Shown here: positions 54,229 to 61,752 of the stretch, one piece after another
Numbering within the stretch: position 1 is the first letter of the stretch
Layout: each line of letters starts with the position of its first letter
Assembly: GCA_965219325.1 (NCBI GenBank)
Contig: OZ244723.1
Location: forward strand, 1,981,803-2,045,802
Direction of reading: 5' to 3'
Origin: Dehalococcoidia bacterium
Lineage (GTDB): Bacteria; Chloroflexota; Dehalococcoidia; Lucifugimonadales; UBA2962
Length of the DNA: 64,000 bases
Notes under the pieces: generated by a model
Database searches by the model: none
Seen by the model: the letters and a program-made list of their open reading frames with translations, nothing else
Told to the model about the DNA's origin: nothing
Made by a program: the position numbers and the translations under genes

Positions 54229-54633
54229 ATGACTGACACCGCAGACGAGAGGCAGGGCCTGGGCAGCCTGCTGCGCGAGCTGCGTGGCGCGATGAGCCTT
54301 AGGGAGGTCCGCCGCCACACGGGCATCTCCGACCCCTACCTGTCGCAGATAGAGAAGGGTCAGCGGAGGCCCGGCCCCCGGGTCCTTAAGCGCCTGGCCG
54401 CGCTGTACGCCGTCGATGTGCACGACCTGCTCAGGCGTGCGGGTCACCTCGACTACGAGGGTGAGAAGCCGGACGTTGACCAGAACCTGGAGATTGAGCG
54501 GGCCTACCAATACGTGCTGTCCGACCCGCGGTTTCGGATGGGAACCAGGCCCAGCGGACCCCTGTCGGAGGAGGCCAAGCGCTTCATAGTCGAGATGTAC
54601 GAGCGATTCACTGGCAAGAGGCTGCTCGATTGA
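54229..54633 (+). CDS. ImmR/CI-like XRE repressor
   Basis: LRELRGAMSLREV...GISDPYLSQIEKGQR.P; directly upstream of an ImmA-like gene. Confidence 0.85.
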   Translation: MTDTADERQGLGSLLRELRGAMSLREVRRHTGISDPYLSQIEKGQRRPGPRVLKRLAALYAVDVHDLLRRAGHLDYEGEKPDVDQNLEIERAYQYVLSDPRFRMGTRPSGPLSEEAKRFIVEMYERFTGKRLLD

Positions 54634-54665
54634 GGGCCACGCTGGGGCGGTTCCGCGATCACGTG

Positions 54666-55682
54666 ATGGCCGGATCGTCCAGTCGCAGGAGCCTGGAGGC
54701 GGAATATGCGGCGGCGGAGTTCGTGCGGTTCTACGGCATGTCTGCGCGTCCGGACCTGGAGGAGATCAAGGGCCTGCTGGCGGAGATCGGCGCGGGCTCG
54801 ATCGTCGCGAGGCGTCTGCCGGATGGACTCCGGGGCGCGCACGTGCCCATGGCCGACGGCGGGTACGTCATCCACCACCTTCCTGACGACTGGAGGGGCG
54901 GGATAGAGCACACGCTGCTGCACGAGATCTACGAGATCACCCACGAGACCGAGGGCGAGGGCCACGGAGGTCCGGAGACGATCGCGCGGGTGTGCAACGA
55001 GGCCAACCGGTTCGCGGCGGCGGTGCTGATGCAGCGGGAGCCGTTCGAGGTGTTTACCATGGCGACGGGTCTGGATGTGATTGCACTCCGGGGGCAGTTC
55101 CAGCGTTCGTACCGGTCGGTGGCGCTGCGACTGGGGGAGGTGATGAGTCACCAGCCGCTGCTGGCGGTCCTCTATGAGCGGAGGGAACAGGGTGACCCGT
55201 CGTCCTGGTGCTCCGCTCCTGAGGCCAGCGATTTCAGGGCATCGGTGGTCGTTAGGACGCCCGGGTTCGGAATCCGGAGTTCGCGGATGCTCTGCGGGGT
55301 GAGGGGAGGAATGCCCCGGTGGGGCACCGTACCGTACATCGGGTCGATGGCCGCCCGGGTATCTCTGGCCGGTGGGTTCGGTTACGGCGAGGAGGAGCCC
55401 GGCGGCGGTGATGGCGATGTCGCGGTGGCGGCGAGGGCCGTCACCTGGTACGGACGCATCGCGAAGGTTGCGGTCGTCGCGGTCCCGTACGGCGACCGGC
55501 ATGTCCTGTCGCCCCAACTGACAGGGCTCGCCCGCTCCCGATCTGGACGCGTCCGCAGTCGTCGGCTGGTGCGCGGTCACGGGGAGGCGAGACCTCGAGA
55601 TGCGTCTGCAGGGGACGAGTGCGCCGAGGGGCGCGGCGCTGCTGCGTGGGCAAGTTCCGCTTCGTTCCCGACGTCCATATAG
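54666..55682 (+). CDS. ImmA/IrrE-family metallopeptidase (anti-repressor), HExxE variant
   Basis: HTLLHEIYE, then CNEANRFAAAVLM; long C-terminal domain. Confidence 0.8.
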   Translation: MAGSSSRRSLEAEYAAAEFVRFYGMSARPDLEEIKGLLAEIGAGSIVARRLPDGLRGAHVPMADGGYVIHHLPDDWRGGIEHTLLHEIYEITHETEGEGHGGPETIARVCNEANRFAAAVLMQREPFEVFTMATGLDVIALRGQFQRSYRSVALRLGEVMSHQPLLAVLYERREQGDPSSWCSAPEASDFRASVVVRTPGFGIRSSRMLCGVRGGMPRWGTVPYIGSMAARVSLAGGFGYGEEEPGGGDGDVAVAARAVTWYGRIAKVAVVAVPYGDRHVLSPQLTGLARSRSGRVRSRRLVRGHGEARPRDASAGDECAEGRGAAAWASSASFPTSI

Positions 55683-55789
55683 GGATGTGGCATCACTCAA
55701 ACAGTCCATCAGGATTTTGAATGGGCAATCCTGAACATCTGAAGCCAGCGACGCTGTACGGGAGGGTGTAGCGCGGCCAATTCAGCATT

Positions 55790-56266
55790 ATCTCTCTTCG
55801 GAGGTCGCTCCTGTGCTCATATGCCCCCGCGACCCTGCAGTTGGGAGAGGTATGGAATGTACAGCCTCTGCTTGCGGTGCTGCATAAGGGTAGGGAACGC
55901 GGCAGGCCGTCGTAATGGTGCCTTGCACAGGAGGCCAGGGACTTCAGAGCGTCAGTGGTAGTGAGGACGCCTAGTTTTGGAGTACGTGACTCTCGGATTC
56001 TATGCGGCGCCAGGGGCTCCATGCCGCGCCGGGGAAGCATGCCGTACCTGGGATCAATGGCATCCCAAGTCGCCCTCAATGGCGGGACAGGCTACGCCGA
56101 GATGCGGCCGGACAAGGATGGCGGCAGGGTAGGGGACTTCGCAGTTACGGCAAGGCCGGTCAAGTGGGCCGGCAGCGTCGCGAAGGTGGCGGTCGTAGCC
56201 GTCCCATACTGTGACCGACACGTCCTTTCCCCACAGTTGACCGGAACCCACAGGTCCCAATACTAG
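55790..56266 (+). pseudogene. Degenerate second copy of the ImmA-like C-terminal region
   Basis: LGEV..QPLLAVL, an internal stop, then VVRTP.FG.R.SR.LCG.RG.MPR...AKVAVVAVPY.DRHVLSPQLTG. Confidence 0.8.
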
Positions 56267-56697
56267 TGATCACAACAGATGGGGCAGTTGCCAGAGGGCC
56301 CACTTCACTTCTAAGGCTTCATGCTCACCTTCCAGGGCCAAACTGGGTTCAGGATAACGCTGTGCCCAGCGGCTCGGCGACAGCAGGACTGCATCCCTCT
56401 TGCCTCCTATTGATCGGCCCTCCACTGGCGATTGATGAATACTGCCGATCGTCGACAATCGCTTACTAGGTCGGCTAAGTTGGAGTCGCTACTGCGGGAC
56501 CTTTCTCCTTCTTCGCTTGCTCGGGACTGTGCTTGCGTCTTGCCCACGTTCATCTCTATCCGCCTGTGCACCACCGTGCAGACGTTCCCCAACGCATCCA
56601 TTCCGACAACCTTTCACACGGTCAAGTGCTCGGATTTGTAACAACTCTTCGGAGGCCATGGTAGGATCAGAACATCTGAGTCAGAGCCGAGGTCGAC

Positions 56698-56964
56698 GTG
56701 GGTGAGTCAAGGGCAGAGCGACGCAGAAAGGGTAAACAAGCCCAAAGAGGAGATGCGATCAATACGGGGCAGTTCAGAGCACCGTGTGGAGATCTAGTGG
56801 TATACGCAACGCAAATACCGGCTTCGCGGCGTGAATGGATTCGCGTTTTCTCTCTGCTGGACCATTTACCAGGCACAAACGCAGGCGGTGACTGTTCCAA
56901 ACCCGAGGCTTGCGGGGCCGAAGTGGACCGCCTCAGCCATGAACTTGGTATCGACGGTGTGTAA
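56698..56964 (+). CDS. Hypothetical protein
   Basis: 88-aa ORF, GTG start, co-oriented with downstream genes. Confidence 0.3.
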   Translation: MGESRAERRRKGKQAQRGDAINTGQFRAPCGDLVVYATQIPASRREWIRVFSLLDHLPGTNAGGDCSKPEACGAEVDRLSHELGIDGV

Positions 56965-57005
56965 CCAAGCAATTGGGCCACAATGCGGAGGCGCGGAGGA
57001 GTCAA

Positions 57006-57458
57006 ATGGCCGATTCGGAACTCCTTAGGCCATCACGGGTCGCGAAGATGGAACGTGATGTTCTTCAAGCGATTAGTGATTTGGGCCCATTTACACCCCT
57101 TCCTACAACGCCAGAGCAATTTTCACCCGCATTCCGCCGACTTCGCGAGACTTACTCTGAAGAGCATGAACAACGTCAACTGACGGTTGTTGTTAACCAC
57201 CTCGTACAAGATCGGTACCTCTACCCTCGGTGGAATCGAGGTCACAACCCCGTTGCTGATGGATATGCCAGCGGCATAACGGCAGCGGGCAGGAAGAGGC
57301 TTGAAGAGCTTCGCCACACAACAAGGACCTGGCTTAAGCGGAATTGGTTCGCTGTAAGCATCGCCGTAATCACAGCCTTTGCGGCGTTGGCAGGCGTTGC
57401 GATCGGGTCGCTAGATTTGGCCATCTCGAGCGGAACGGAGATCCGGCCAGCCGATTAG
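57006..57458 (+). CDS. Winged-helix-like protein with a C-terminal TM helix
   Basis: SD ggaggag; GITAAGRKRL wing motif; hydrophobic C-terminus. Confidence 0.65.
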   Translation: MADSELLRPSRVAKMERDVLQAISDLGPFTPLPTTPEQFSPAFRRLRETYSEEHEQRQLTVVVNHLVQDRYLYPRWNRGHNPVADGYASGITAAGRKRLEELRHTTRTWLKRNWFAVSIAVITAFAALAGVAIGSLDLAISSGTEIRPAD

Positions 57459-57462
57459 GGAC

Positions 57463-57933
57463 TTGCGGCGCCACCTTATTCTGCTTGTCGAGGCTGTAGG
57501 GATGGGAGCGAATGAACTATTCATCGTCCCTTTCGCATGGCCTTACCGACTTGCGGTCTATTGCGGGATAGTGGCAATTACCGCCGTGGCCCTATACGGC
57601 AGCGATATCGTCGGATGGCTCCATTCTGGGGAAAGAATACGCCGGAGAGCTATCAAGCAGCGAGAACAGGATCGGAAACAGCGCACGCGCGAAAATGAAA
57701 GGCGTGTTGCTGATCGCCTCCGAGAGATCAAGAGAACGCCTTGGCTAGGAGAGCCAGATTACGATCCTGAGACCGGGATCATAAGGAGCCCGATAGAGCC
57801 TAGGCGCACATGGAGGGGACGGGTGATGAATGTCTTGATCTGGGTGTCTAATCGGTCTTGGTGGGTGAATTGGTCAATCACCGAAAAGGTAGTGCAAACA
57901 TTAGCTAAGCGTATCGGCATACGTGTGTCGTAG
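57463..57933 (+). CDS. Hypothetical membrane protein
   Basis: Two N-terminal TM segments, charged helix, Trp-rich C-terminus. Confidence 0.55.
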   Translation: MRRHLILLVEAVGMGANELFIVPFAWPYRLAVYCGIVAITAVALYGSDIVGWLHSGERIRRRAIKQREQDRKQRTRENERRVADRLREIKRTPWLGEPDYDPETGIIRSPIEPRRTWRGRVMNVLIWVSNRSWWVNWSITEKVVQTLAKRIGIRVS

Positions 57934-58014
57934 TCTGCGACACCAGTTCGCTAGCCTAACGCGGCCTTTGCTGGCCACCTGAATCTGAAGGGAGTCAAAT
58001 CAAGCTGATGCCGA

Positions 58015-58195
58015 AGATGGGTGAGGAAGAAGCGAACTACGCCGGAGAAGGGATGTATGAGCCAGACAGCTACGGTCGTTCAACCCACCTGATGGAGAGC
58101 CGGATGCAGTGAAGGCCGCACGCCCGGTTCGGTGGTGGGATGGCCCATACCAGCAGGAGCAGTCCGGTCATTGGCGCCGCCGGCCCCACCCAAAT
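58015..58195 (+). ncRNA. 3' fragment (DIV-DVI) of a related ORF-less group II intron
   Basis: 31-nt identity (58029-58059) with 9679-9709; DV gagccggatgcagtgaaggccgcacgcccggttc; ends ccccacccaaat; DI-DIII absent. Confidence 0.8.
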
Positions 58196-58598
58196 CACGA
58201 TTCGGGGGCAGGTCACCTGGGCTCGTTTGACAGTTACCAAGGTGAGCGCTGGCAGATTCTGAATGAATCGGTTCAGGTGAAGGTTGCGGAGAGGGCGAAG
58301 GAACGTGATGATGCGTCACTCAGAATTTGGGCAGCCGCATGTAGTTCGTCAAACGTGGGGCGTCTGGAAACGGCGACCACGTAGTTTGCCGAAGGGAACT
58401 GATGAAACCGGTGCAAGGGTGGTGGGTGCGGCTGGCCCGGCCGATGCCATTGGAGTCGCCTATCCTTCTCCCCCTAGTCGGCAAGTGCCGGTGTTGATAG
58501 ACTCGACTCAAGGAGACTTGGCCAGCGAGCTAGGCGATTGCTGGCGTTGAGTTTCTGGGGCAGCCAGTCGTGAACACGTCATTCATGAAGTTCAACGG

Positions 58599-59276
58599 AT
58601 GATTGCGCTCGATTCAATCAATAAGCTGAAGACTTCAGTCGTGTATGTGACCGATAGTTCGGGGCGGGAACCCGATTTGGGCCTGCTTATCGGGGCGGAC
58701 CCCGATGTCATGCGTCGATTTATCGATGCTCCAGAGGCCAGCCCTTCTGCCGCTGGTGGGGTCGTCCTAACCAGTATGCGCAATCAGTTTAAAGTCACTA
58801 TAGATGCAAACAGGCTAGATTTTGATGACGGCAGTGAGCAGTTACCCGCACGGTCAGACTTTCCAGAACGCGTAGCAACGACAGCCGAACATATCGTAAG
58901 GCAGAGCGACAAGATTTGTTCTGCGATCGGCCTTAACTTCCATATCGAGGCCGCGTCCGATGACGGAGAGCTGCCTAGTAATGCAGTCTTAGCGCGGCTG
59001 ACAAGAGTAGACAGGCTCAACAGCGTCGGCTACAAAGCGATAGGCGTATCAGCGAGATTTTGGTACGAAGCTGGCGATAGCGAAAAAAAGAGGTATGATC
59101 TTCGCCTTGAACCCAGAGGCAGCCAATATGCAGGCGCGAATTACTTCGCATCCTTGAACGTCCACTTTGCTCTGTCGGGCGGCGTTCCCTCAGTGGACTG
59201 GCTCTCAGATGGGCTGAATGCAGAGTACAGAGAATTCTTGAGGATCTTGATGCAGCTTCTGGATAAGAAGGGTTAA
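58599..59276 (+). CDS. Hypothetical protein, TIGR04255-like (gene 1 of triad)
   Basis: 225-aa alpha/beta pattern with AIGLNF, YDLRLEP and LNVH; family assignment from memory only. Confidence 0.55.
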   Translation: MIALDSINKLKTSVVYVTDSSGREPDLGLLIGADPDVMRRFIDAPEASPSAAGGVVLTSMRNQFKVTIDANRLDFDDGSEQLPARSDFPERVATTAEHIVRQSDKICSAIGLNFHIEAASDDGELPSNAVLARLTRVDRLNSVGYKAIGVSARFWYEAGDSEKKRYDLRLEPRGSQYAGANYFASLNVHFALSGGVPSVDWLSDGLNAEYREFLRILMQLLDKKG

Positions 59277-59279
59277 GCG

Positions 59280-59774
59280 ATGAGAACTCCCTACGTTTAT
59301 CACTCTGAGACATCGGCTACGAACCTCGAAACGAATTCGCCATCCGATTACGGTGTTGCCAATCGATCAGTTTTCCAACCGTTGTCTTTCCAGTGGAGAA
59401 TTGTCCACGATTCGAAGCCTACGCCGGTTGCCTACGGTCAAGTCGGTTACCTTGCGCTCGTAAGTAGATTCTCGGATCTTCTGAAGTTGGAGCGGCAGAT
59501 CAAGGAGCGGACGGCGGCGGTTTCTTTGAATTCGGGTGCTCTACAGTTGATGGATGCGCTGGACAAAGAAACCTCCATAAGGTGGGAAGATCTGCCGGAG
59601 CGTTCTGGGGGAGACTGGATGGAGGCATGTCGGGCTGCCACGCTCTTGGCTGGTGCTAATCTGTGTGATGCGAGTCCTACGCGCCTCAGACTTACCGAGC
59701 ACGGACATAGAATGCTTGGCGGGGCAGAACTATCCGAGCGGATGGACTCTGAGGTTGGCCCCCCAGCAGCCTGA
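59280..59774 (+). CDS. Low-complexity N-terminus + winged-helix C-terminus (gene 2 of triad)
   Basis: ALQLMDAL..IRWEDL...LRLTEHG; starts 3 nt after the gene 1 stop. Confidence 0.6.
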   Translation: MRTPYVYHSETSATNLETNSPSDYGVANRSVFQPLSFQWRIVHDSKPTPVAYGQVGYLALVSRFSDLLKLERQIKERTAAVSLNSGALQLMDALDKETSIRWEDLPERSGGDWMEACRAATLLAGANLCDASPTRLRLTEHGHRMLGGAELSERMDSEVGPPAA

Positions 59775-60291
59775 CAGCCTCCTTGCTCGAGAGAGCTTGC
59801 GTGTCGTCGTCTTGGGTCCGGGCGAGGCGCAACCAGAGGATCTCTGCAAACGTCTCCAGGTTAAGTCTCGCTTGGTGGATAAGGGCTACATCCGGGCTCA
59901 ATTGGGGGAGGAAGTCATCGGCGACGCAGAGATGCCTTTGCACATGGCGCTCTTGTCTGCGCTGGGCGACATCGATCTGCTCCTTGTGCTCAACACGGGC
60001 CCGGCTCCCTTGGCAGAATTGGCCGCCATCAGCCATATCTATAGAGCGAGAGAGATCACCAGAGTCTGGTTTAAGCGAGAATACGTCCAGGGCGGGCGTT
60101 CGACTCCAACAGACGTTGTGAGCACATTTGAAAACTGGCCGTTTAACCCAGATGAGTTCACAAGTTGCGAGTTAGTTGAATCACTGTTGGAAGCTACAGA
60201 ACGGGCCTGCATCACGAAGGCACAGAAAGAAGGTCGGCTAGCTAGTATAGGCTTTCTCCCTCCAAGCGAGGATACTCCAAGCGTATCGTGA
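59755..60291 (+). CDS. Nucleoside 2-deoxyribosyltransferase/TIR-like Rossmannoid protein (gene 3 of triad)
   Basis: RVVVLGPG..KR..L..GY..GEE...DLLLVLNTGPAPLAELAAI; start codon uncertain (TTG 59755 overlaps the gene 2 stop). Confidence 0.55.
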   Translation: MAPQQPDSLLARESLRVVVLGPGEAQPEDLCKRLQVKSRLVDKGYIRAQLGEEVIGDAEMPLHMALLSALGDIDLLLVLNTGPAPLAELAAISHIYRAREITRVWFKREYVQGGRSTPTDVVSTFENWPFNPDEFTSCELVESLLEATERACITKAQKEGRLASIGFLPPSEDTPSVS

Positions 60292-60555
60292 CTTTCGTGA
60301 TACTGGATGCTACGCGAGTCGGATGGCTCGGCGAATTTCCTGTACGTGGTGTCCACCGGCCGTAGCTCCTACATTGAAAGAGTCCAAGCAAACTTAGCAT
60401 CAGAAGGTTTGTACAACGCGGCAGGCTGAGAAGGCTTGTCCGTGTTGGAACGCTACTCCCCAATGTATGAGCGGCAACGCTAGTACTCCAGCAGCCACAG
60501 AAAACCGATCAAACTTGGGCATTCCTCGGACAAACATGACAACGGACATAGAGAG

Positions 60556-61752
60556 ATGGGACCTTTCAGTGAACCGCGCGAGCATTCAGATGAGGTCGAT
60601 CAACAGCAGGTAAGCTGCCGACCATTAAACGATCCGGCGCTTTGCGAGAGAACCGATTCGATTGGCTGCAGAAGTCAAGCTAGACGCCTGTACCGGCTGG
60701 TCGGCATAGTCTCGGGGGCGCTGGCAATGACGGTCCTGTTGACTGGTTGCCAGACGGATGCTCAGCGAATCCGAACGACGAATGAGGCCCTTGCCACGCT
60801 GGGAGTGGAAGGTACTGCTCTCAGCGCGCAGATCCAGTCAATCGACCTGAAGGAGGGAGACTGCATAGATTCGACCCTTCCGGAGGGTGTCAGCATCGAG
60901 ACGGTGGAGATAGTCGTTTGTGCCGGCGAGTGGCAATATAGAGTCTTGAATTCGTTCGAGGTCGCTGGTGCCGACCACTATCCGGGGGAGCGTTACTTCT
61001 CGAGGAGGGCAGAGGAAAGCTGCGATCGGCGTTTCACCTACTTTCTGTACCCACTATCGGACTCCTGGAATCTGGGGGAACGGACGGTTGACTGCCTGCA
61101 ACACAGCTTTGGACTCGCAGTAGATGACCCCGACAAGCTCGATCGTCTAGTCAACTCTACCCTACTTGCGGTAGGGGAGTGTTTCAATGAAGCTCCCGAG
61201 ACCGGAGGCCAGTCCGTAGAGCTAGTCGAGTGCTCGGGCGAGTGGGATTTCAAGGTCCTAGCGTCGTTCGAGGTACCCGATTATGACGCATATCCGGGAG
61301 ACGACTACTTCAGTGAACAGGCTAACGAGAGGTGCGATTCCCGGCACAGCTCCATCCTTTACCCACTTGCCGAGACTTGGGACCTGGAGGACCGTACCGT
61401 CAGTTGCCTACAGGATAGCTTCGGGCTCTCGTTCAGTGACCCTGACAAGCTGGACAGGCTGGTCAATGTTGGTTCACTCAATCCTGGACAGTGCTTTAAC
61501 GAACCTCCAGAAACCGATCATGTTCTCGTCGAGGTAGTCCATTGCGACCGCGACTGGGAACTCCAGGTGACGGAACGTTTCCAGGTATCGGTTGACGGAG
61601 CGTTTCCAGGCGCCGGCTACATCGAACGCCAAGCCACACAGCATTGCGGGTCCGCTTGGGACTTCTACTACGGGCCCTCCGCCGAAACCTGGACGTGGGG
61701 GAATCGGACTATAGTCTGCGCAAAGGCGAGTGAGCCCTTGAGCCAGCCCTAA
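60556..61752 (+). CDS. Lipoprotein with three septum-formation-like Cys repeats
   Basis: Lipobox LLTGC; repeated G.C....V.C..EW..V...F...YPG...A...C...P..TW..G.RT..C; true start probably downstream of 60556. Confidence 0.75.
   Translation: MGPFSEPREHSDEVDQQQVSCRPLNDPALCERTDSIGCRSQARRLYRLVGIVSGALAMTVLLTGCQTDAQRIRTTNEALATLGVEGTALSAQIQSIDLKEGDCIDSTLPEGVSIETVEIVVCAGEWQYRVLNSFEVAGADHYPGERYFSRRAEESCDRRFTYFLYPLSDSWNLGERTVDCLQHSFGLAVDDPDKLDRLVNSTLLAVGECFNEAPETGGQSVELVECSGEWDFKVLASFEVPDYDAYPGDDYFSEQANERCDSRHSSILYPLAETWDLEDRTVSCLQDSFGLSFSDPDKLDRLVNVGSLNPGQCFNEPPETDHVLVEVVHCDRDWELQVTERFQVSVDGAFPGAGYIERQATQHCGSAWDFYYGPSAETWTWGNRTIVCAKASEPLSQP

Follow-up and report, generated by a model that had tools for sequence, protein, structure and literature searches.

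A conserved three-gene cassette of Dehalococcoidia with a predicted retron-effector-like protein: a candidate new toxin–antitoxin or defence module

We describe here a group of three small genes, g1, g2 and g3, found in a stretch of 64,000 nucleotides of a Dehalococcoidia genome (assembly GCA_965219325.1, contig OZ244723.1, positions 1,981,803 to 2,045,802; the whole stretch is called the window below). The three genes form a conserved, co-diverging unit. On the basis of sequence comparison and structural models, the third gene is predicted to encode a nucleoside deoxyribosyltransferase (NDT)/TIR-like protein related to the effectors of type II retrons, and the cassette is a credible candidate for a new toxin–antitoxin (TA) or defence module. 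Its genes are as follows.

g1, 58599 to 59276, + strand: acidic protein of 225 aa with a predicted double-repeat fold like that of TATA-binding protein (TBP); optional first gene of the cassette
g2, 59280 to 59774, + strand: protein of 164 aa, with a poorly conserved N-terminal region of ~65 aa and a conserved C-terminal region of ~95 aa that is probably a winged-helix domain
g3, 59755 to 60291, + strand: NDT/TIR-like predicted N-glycosidase effector of 178 aa

An initial annotation of the window had picked out a tightly coupled three-gene module at this position, and the open reading frames (ORFs) bear this out. All three are co-directional. The third ORF was called as 59653–60291; the methionine of 20 aligned homologues falls on an in-frame TTG at 59755, and g3 is therefore taken to run from 59755 to 60291. 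The gap between g1 and g2 is 3 nt, and g2 and g3 overlap by 20 nt. As small genes that are adjacent, co-oriented, coupled and found together, g2 and g3 have the layout of a type II TA pair.

The three proteins were compared by tblastn with every locus fetched from other genomes (designated by L numbers). The intact triad, with the same order and tight spacing, occurs in at least 14 other loci from metagenome-assembled genomes (MAGs) of Dehalococcoidia, SAR202 and 'Latescibacterota' (L001, L005, L007, L008, L009, L011/L138, L012, L014, L018, L019, L068, L139, L140), so that the arrangement is not due to chance; the initial annotation had made its proposal depend on the genes occurring together elsewhere. 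An apparent truncation of g3 in L140 and an apparent lack of g1 in L139 were gene-calling artefacts, both genes being intact by tblastn. Homologues of g3, g2 and g1 form 61, 129 and 16 clusters respectively (those of g1 at 47–62% identity), none of which is named or has a Pfam domain. A scan of metagenome contigs with g2 gave one locus, already in the set, and no flanking gene beyond the triad is conserved across lineages.

g2 accompanies g3 in every one of about 25 g3 loci, with overlaps elsewhere of 11–62 nt, and g3 was never seen without g2. The g2–g3 pair is found without g1 in three lineages (L003/L013, L004/L069–L071 and L010), and g2 alone in L021. The length of g2 follows the presence of g1: it is 157–198 aa in every triad, and 102–129 aa, with the first ~60 residues missing, wherever g1 is absent. 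Because the N-terminal extension of g2 is present only alongside g1, we infer that g1 acts via this extension. The pairwise-identity matrices of the three proteins correlate over 12 triads with a Mantel r of 0.82–0.88, which none of 2000 permutations reaches. Over the same triads g3 is the most conserved protein, with a mean identity of 67%, as against 52% for g1 and 49% for g2. Swapping of the third gene across genomes, which the initial annotation had envisaged, was looked for within the g1/g2 family and not seen, all 129 g2 clusters being close relatives; it is among the distant relatives described below that the partner of the NDT-like gene varies.

The AlphaFold2 model of g3 has a core with a predicted local confidence (pLDDT) of 80–90. 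Its best PDB matches in Foldseek are the retron-Eco1/Ec86 effector (8qbl_E and 7xjg_J, E about 1e-4), TIR-STING, DNPH1/RCL, the CMP N-glycosidases MilB and BcmB, and NDTs, with E values from 8e-5 to 1e-2 and template modelling (TM) scores of up to 0.65 on the target. A search of 1.8 billion representatives with a profile of the family returned 53 proteins, and only three residues are invariant (43/43) in an alignment of 43 sequences of the wider g3 family.

K32 of g3, 59848 to 59850, + strand: invariant in the alignment of 43 sequences
E88 of g3, 60016 to 60018, + strand: invariant in the same alignment
C138 of g3, 60166 to 60168, + strand: invariant in the same alignment

The wider g3 profile was aligned using hhalign with 19 PF05014 (NDT) proteins of the same phylum (probability 71.5%, E 3.6e-5) and with TIR_2 domains (PF13676; probability 50%, E 1.6e-4); three unrelated alignments, used as controls, gave probabilities of 0.1–0.4% and E values of 0.15–0.5. 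In both alignments Glu88 is placed on the catalytic glutamate, which in NDT is the glutamate of the ElG motif. Foldseek and hhalign thus agree on a flavodoxin-like fold with the catalytic Glu after β4, as in the NDT/DNPH1 family. Because both profile alignments put Glu88 on the catalytic glutamate, g3 appears to be a separate branch of the NDT/TIR-like assemblage that retains the catalytic Glu, and the initial description of g3 as NDT/TIR-like is upheld. g3 gave no gathering-score match to PF05014 and no match to the TIR hidden Markov model (HMM), which found one of the 43 family members at E 0.03; a profile search of the PDB with g3 found nothing. A six-frame PF05014 search of the genome found only another gene, a canonical nucleoside 2-deoxyribosyltransferase at 738240–738584 (96.9 bits), and g3 is therefore not the only NDT-fold protein of this genome. 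The g3 protein ends after the NDT-like core and one helix, and the domain resembling a winged helix-turn-helix (wHTH) lies in the separate upstream gene g2.

More distant relatives of g3 came from a search with the wider profile that covered 401 genomes from the host phylum and 168 from 'Latescibacterota'. In L132–L134, proteins of ~300 aa matching the g3 profile stand immediately before retron-type reverse transcriptases (RTs), and these are ordinary type II-A retrons. In L110 an NDT-like gene, a wHTH gene of 98 aa and a retron RT are three separate genes: the RT matches PADLOC RT_II-A/III-A (E 1e-74), the NDT gene matches NDT_II-A (E 4.7e-19), and the 98-aa protein has a weak match to the C-terminal part of NDT_II-A. 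The g3 relative in L108 also matches NDT_II-A (E 2.5e-8). In terms of sequence, the closest detectable relatives of g3 are retron effectors, and the retron analogy drawn in the initial annotation is apt, given that distant members of the family match PADLOC NDT_II-A and adjoin retron RTs. The L110 locus is worth recording in its own right, as a split type II-A-like retron (L110:6444-8440) in a 1.7 Mb genome of the same class, encoding an NDT-like protein of 188 aa and an RT of 335 aa, and adjoining a thymidylate-synthase-like gene.

Other distant relatives have other partners. L105 and L109 have a g3-like NDT-like gene directly upstream of a type I HsdR with an extra N-terminal winged-helix region of ~140 aa, the gene order in L109 being hsdM-hsdS-NDT-like-hsdR. 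In L106, L108, L129–L131, L135 and L137, g3-like genes lie upstream of other proteins with an N-terminal wHTH, and L107 is a single distant triad with the same layout as that of the window. Since distant g3 relatives show this pairing repeatedly, the recurring core is an NDT-like protein together with a winged-helix partner. Type II retron effectors have the same pairing of NDT-like and wHTH domains (PMC7736814), and that of retron Ec86 becomes toxic on release, depleting adenine derivatives (bioRxiv 10.1101/2023.08.16.553469). When g2 was compared directly with the partner wHTH domains of the distant loci, hhalign gave a probability of 4%, which is not significant.

The assignment of g2 as a wHTH protein, made in the initial annotation, is weak. 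Its C-terminal ~95 aa contain the conserved motif LLAGANLCEVSPTRIRLSEYGDKLL, and the alignment has a helix–wing pattern (H3-wing-'LxExG'). There is a match to HemN_C (E 2e-4), found in 2 of 12 members, which at 21.8 bits lies below the cut-off of 24. From these sequence features the region is probably a winged helix. A PDB profile search with g2 gave only spurious matches to GCP6 repeats. The domain is acidic, with an isoelectric point (pI) of about 5, and as the wHTH call is sub-threshold too, DNA binding and autorepression by g2 are doubtful; to judge from its sequence, protein binding is at least as likely as DNA binding.

The g1 protein matches no family in Pfam, NCBIfam or PADLOC, and a PDB profile search was likewise empty. 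Its AlphaFold2 model (pLDDT 81.5, predicted TM score (pTM) 0.83) consists of two S1-H1-S2-S3-S4-S5-H2 repeats. This order of secondary structure fits the TBP double repeat exactly, and the top 43 PDB hits are all TBPs (E 3e-5, TM 0.30–0.43, root-mean-square deviation 8–9 Å). Far better than any PDB entry is the match in BFVD to an unnamed viral protein of 202 aa, A0A515MGR4 (E 1.2e-8, TM 0.59/0.65), which places this fold in a virus-encoded protein too. g1 has a pI of 5.2, and g1 and all 22 of its relatives are acidic (pI 4.4–5.6), with none of the basic character of a DNA-binding surface.

The initial annotation had called g1 a TIGR04255-like protein. No sequence test supports this, and the model is a TBP-like double repeat. 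At the sequence level the assignment is rejected: neither g1 nor three divergent orthologues have an NCBIfam match, hhalign of g1 against TIGR04255 gives a probability of 0.2–0.35%, and a forced alignment of the two is collinear and not significant. A six-frame search of the window's genome with TIGR04255 found nothing, though TIGR04255 members occur in 20 of 201 genomes from this phylum, and a search with the TIGR04255 profile for a solved structure found none. In those 20 genomes (L022–L041) each TIGR04255 gene heads a tight three-gene cassette, in which the second and third genes form at least four co-varying pairs; the third genes include a 'LYRR..P' protein of ~130 aa, 'ISQDCD'/'SQxCE' proteins and HEPN-like proteins. 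The distant triad L107 has as its first gene a recognisable relative of TIGR04255 (hhalign E 3e-4; 15.3 bits, as against at most 4.3 bits in 500 shuffles). A remote link between g1 and TIGR04255 may exist, because the head gene of L107 is a relative of that family and because TIGR04255 genes head three-gene cassettes. A literature search gave no description of the g3 family or of the TIGR04255 cassettes, and no mention of TIGR04255.

On the basis of these observations we hypothesise that the cassette is a TA-like conflict module, with g3 as an NDT-like N-glycosidase toxin, g2 as its inhibitor and g1 as an optional modulator, which would serve abortive-infection defence or element addiction. 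We put this at a little better than an even chance. It would be a horizontally mobile module whose effector, g3, is a stand-alone NDT/TIR-like N-glycosidase, remotely homologous to the N-terminal domain of type II-A retron effectors. In NAD+ or adenine nucleotides g3 is predicted to break the N-glycosidic bond, with Glu88 as the catalytic residue, and thereby to stop growth. g2 would be its obligatory partner, translationally coupled to it; the winged-helix-like domain is predicted to bind g3 and keep it inactive, and would correspond, as a separate protein, to the wHTH domain which retron effectors carry fused to their NDT domain. The optional third component, g1, of TBP-like fold, is predicted to dock onto the N-terminal tail of g2. 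In type II retrons the complex of RT and msDNA is believed to restrain the effector; g1, as a sensor or modulator, would fill this guard role, and g3 would be released after phage infection or loss of the element.

A more specific version of the role of g1 can be framed, which we regard as tentative and on balance unlikely. Here g1 would be a very divergent, TBP-like relative of TIGR04255 that replaces RT-msDNA as the guard of a retron-type effector, and would belong to a broad class of 'head' genes, so far undescribed. Such heads would precede swappable pairs of partner and toxin, the third genes being NDT-like, HEPN-like, 'LYRR' or 'SQxCD' within the same phylum. g1 would then sense a cue of infection and free the toxin through the N-terminal tail of g2.

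Of the known systems, the closest analogue of how the cassette would work is a type II-A retron effector that has been split and has lost its RT. It shares with the effectors of Retron-Eco1/Ec86 and Retron-Sen2/St85 (PMC7736814) an NDT-like N-glycosidase domain with a catalytic Glu and a winged-helix module; the g3 model is structurally closest to these effectors, and distant g3 relatives match NDT_II-A and flank retron RTs. Separation of the NDT and wHTH domains is also known in retron subtype II-A2 (PMC7736814). In contrast to type II-A retrons, the cassette has neither RT nor msr/msd, its wHTH is encoded by a separate gene upstream of the NDT gene instead of being fused at the C-terminus, it adds a TBP-like first gene, and the window's g3 reaches no PADLOC NDT_II-A model (no match at E<=0.1). 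As the initial annotation had stated, there is no RT near the triad: the window has no RVT_1 match, and the only one in the 3.25-Mb genome is a fragment at 665735–666007, ~1.3 Mb away. An Rfam scan of 55500–61000 for msr/msd RNA (E<=1) gave only a group II intron remnant, a weak test given that Rfam covers retron RNAs poorly. Lacking an RT, msr/msd RNA and a fused wHTH, the cassette is not a retron.

Judged by the family models, the cassette also falls outside PF05014, TIR_2 and TIGR04255. PF05014 NDTs and DNPH1 share with g3 the flavodoxin-like fold, the β1-Gly loop and a Glu after β4 that aligns with the catalytic nucleophile; g3 differs in being missed by the HMM, with similarity at the profile–profile level only (71% probability), and in having additional conserved motifs (VWxKRE, RSTPxD and the invariant Cys) and a C-terminal helix. 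The bacterial TIR NADases (TIR_2, TIR-STING, ThsB) resemble g3 in that TIR-STING is among its fold matches and Glu88 falls on the TIR catalytic Glu, but g3 has no TIR HMM match and the similarity is weaker than that to NDT. Type II TA pairs with toxins acting on NAD or nucleotides (Xre-RES, MbcTA) likewise have a small upstream gene coupled to a predicted nucleotide- or NAD-degrading enzyme and are sporadic and mobile, and the optional third gene recalls three-gene TA systems (omega-epsilon-zeta and toxin–antitoxin–chaperone, TAC). The protein families of all these TA systems are unrelated to those of the cassette, however, and g1 is neither a SecB-like chaperone nor an omega repressor. TIGR04255 proteins are similar to g1 in length (~225–260 aa) and in being encoded by the first gene of a tight three-gene cassette, and differ in the HMM and hhalign results given above.

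The distribution of the cassette is sporadic: g3 is present in 1 of the 401 genomes of the host phylum. Genes within 8 kb of the cassette in other genomes were inspected, a qualitative survey with no baseline. They include a SIR2-STAND/ThsA-like gene and an OLD/Gabija-like ATPase (L018); a type I restriction-modification (RM) system (L068); a type IIG RM system, PIN-RHH and an AAA_15/DUF3696 ATPase (L140); an AbiLi-like ATPase and the insertion sequence (IS) IS30 (L072); PLD-DpnI_C (L021); Fic, PIN and IS110 (L004, L069); and a phage portal gene and a transposase (L139). In L072 g3 is split by an IS30-family insertion, and in L015 and L136 single-base deletions shortly ahead of the catalytic Glu codon disrupt it, the one in L015 lying in a C6 run. 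All three loci retain intact copies of g1 and g2, so decay hits g3 only. The IS insertion cannot be a sequencing artefact, while the indels might be.

In L005, L072 and related 'Latescibacterota' loci, and only in these, the gene directly upstream of g1 and co-oriented with it encodes a NUDIX hydrolase (Nudix_hydro and NUDIX). This lineage-specific neighbour may reflect a functional link to nucleotide or ADP-ribose metabolism.

Several observations weigh against reading the cassette as a conflict module. g3 has no match in Pfam, NCBIfam or PADLOC (and in Pfam there is none for 21 and 43 of its relatives), and its link to NDTs and retron effectors is remote (hhalign probability 71%, Foldseek TM 0.44–0.65). 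The HemN_C match that suggests a wHTH in g2 falls short of the cut-off, and this region is acidic; the PDB matches of g1 have low TM scores (0.30–0.43), and g1 is acidic, unlike DNA-binding TBP. Co-divergence of the three genes is also expected under plain shared descent. Some loci have housekeeping genes as their neighbours (L019, L003). Of the three g3 disruptions, two are indels of one base in MAGs built from long reads, and the one in the C6 run could be a sequencing error. There was no match in IMG/VR (g3), in a phage collection (g1) or among plasmids (g3). The analysis shows the gene structure, its conservation and co-divergence, the modelled fold, the remote homology and the invariant Glu; enzymatic activity and substrate, toxicity, neutralisation, binding partners, trigger and defence are all predicted from sequence, model and analogy.

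Since DNPH1, MilB and NDT are among its fold matches, g3 could instead be a nucleotide N-glycosidase of the DNPH1/NDT/MilB type that salvages or detoxifies (modified) nucleotides, with g2 as regulator, g1 as a ligand-binding accessory protein and no role in toxicity or immunity. The several loci among metabolic genes (L019, L003) and the NUDIX hydrolase gene just upstream in 'Latescibacterota' loci would suit such a function. We nevertheless think it quite unlikely: the genome already holds a canonical PF05014 NDT gene, the triad is of foreign composition and found in just one of 401 genomes of the phylum, its neighbourhoods change and are often rich in defence genes, it has been inactivated by an IS in one genome, and its closest detectable sequence relatives are retron effectors. 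Improbable to a similar degree is a module with the same chemistry as the preferred one that serves purely for addiction (post-segregational killing), stabilising an integrative and conjugative element (ICE) or genomic island with no part in phage defence. It would account for the low-GC island adjoining ICE regulatory and transfer genes, for a gene order and overlap typical of type II TA pairs, and for the IS, transposase and prophage genes nearby in other genomes; against this, many copies sit in the chromosome next to RM, SIR2-STAND and OLD-like defence genes and not on recognisable mobile elements, no plasmid copies were found, and the homologous retron effectors act in defence.

Less probable still, in our view, is that g3 is not an effector but a nucleotide- or ligand-sensing regulatory subunit acting through its wHTH partner, which would make the cassette an add-on sensor or regulator for other defence systems. 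The proposal draws on the distant g3-like genes directly before HsdR or other large proteins with an N-terminal wHTH (L105, L109, L129–L131, L135, L137), an arrangement suggesting that contact between NDT-like protein and wHTH controls a different effector. The family found in the window contains no other effector, though; Glu88, Lys32 and Cys138 are invariant throughout it, as expected of an active enzyme, and conservation is highest for the predicted effector gene (mean identity 67%, as against 49–52% for the other two).

In this cassette a remote relative of the retron toxin has been kept together with two further proteins, a separate one of probable winged-helix type and a TBP-like one, with no reverse transcriptase. 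Were it active, the NDT-like and wHTH core would be a free-standing module run by different sensors, namely RT-msDNA, type I restriction subunits or a TBP-like protein, and a family absent from Pfam, NCBIfam and PADLOC would be added to the immune or addiction effectors that deplete NAD or nucleotides. The family sits in poorly studied phyla, Chloroflexota and 'Latescibacterota', and the three-gene cassettes headed by TIGR04255 are a possible unexplored class of conflict systems.

The triad lies within a region of distinct composition.

Low-GC island, 56250 to 61750, no strand assigned: 5.5 kb with 55.4% GC, adjoining ICE regulatory genes

The lower GC content noted in the initial annotation is confirmed, at 53.9% for the triad as against 62.8% for the whole window and 66.1% for the adjacent ICE region (33000–56000). 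GC at third codon positions is 0.56–0.61 in the triad genes and 0.81 in a nearby M78 gene. Besides the triad, the island holds two membrane-protein ORFs of unknown function, a group II intron remnant and a Septum_form/LppU-like lipoprotein gene; to its left are an XRE/M78-peptidase pair and the ICE. No att-like direct repeats were found flanking the island, and scans for promoters and terminators gave results at or below chance level. The intron remnant (domains V–VI, 58095–58195, + strand) lies 400 nt upstream of g1 and matches RF00029 with 38.9 bits, the gathering score being 40; no intron-encoded protein is present.

Two further ORFs of the region are worth adding. The ORF at 60556–61752 (+ strand), in the same low-GC island, encodes a Septum_form/LppU-SCO3897-like protein of 398 aa with three internal repeats of ~110 aa (CxxxxxE...C...W...C motif). 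The ORF at 55955–56266 (+ strand) partially duplicates the C-terminal region of the M78-peptidase-like ORF at 54630–55682 (VVRTPxFGxRxSRxLCGxRG...AKVAVVAVPYxDRHVLSPQLTG), which suggests that the ICE regulatory region has been rearranged or duplicated.

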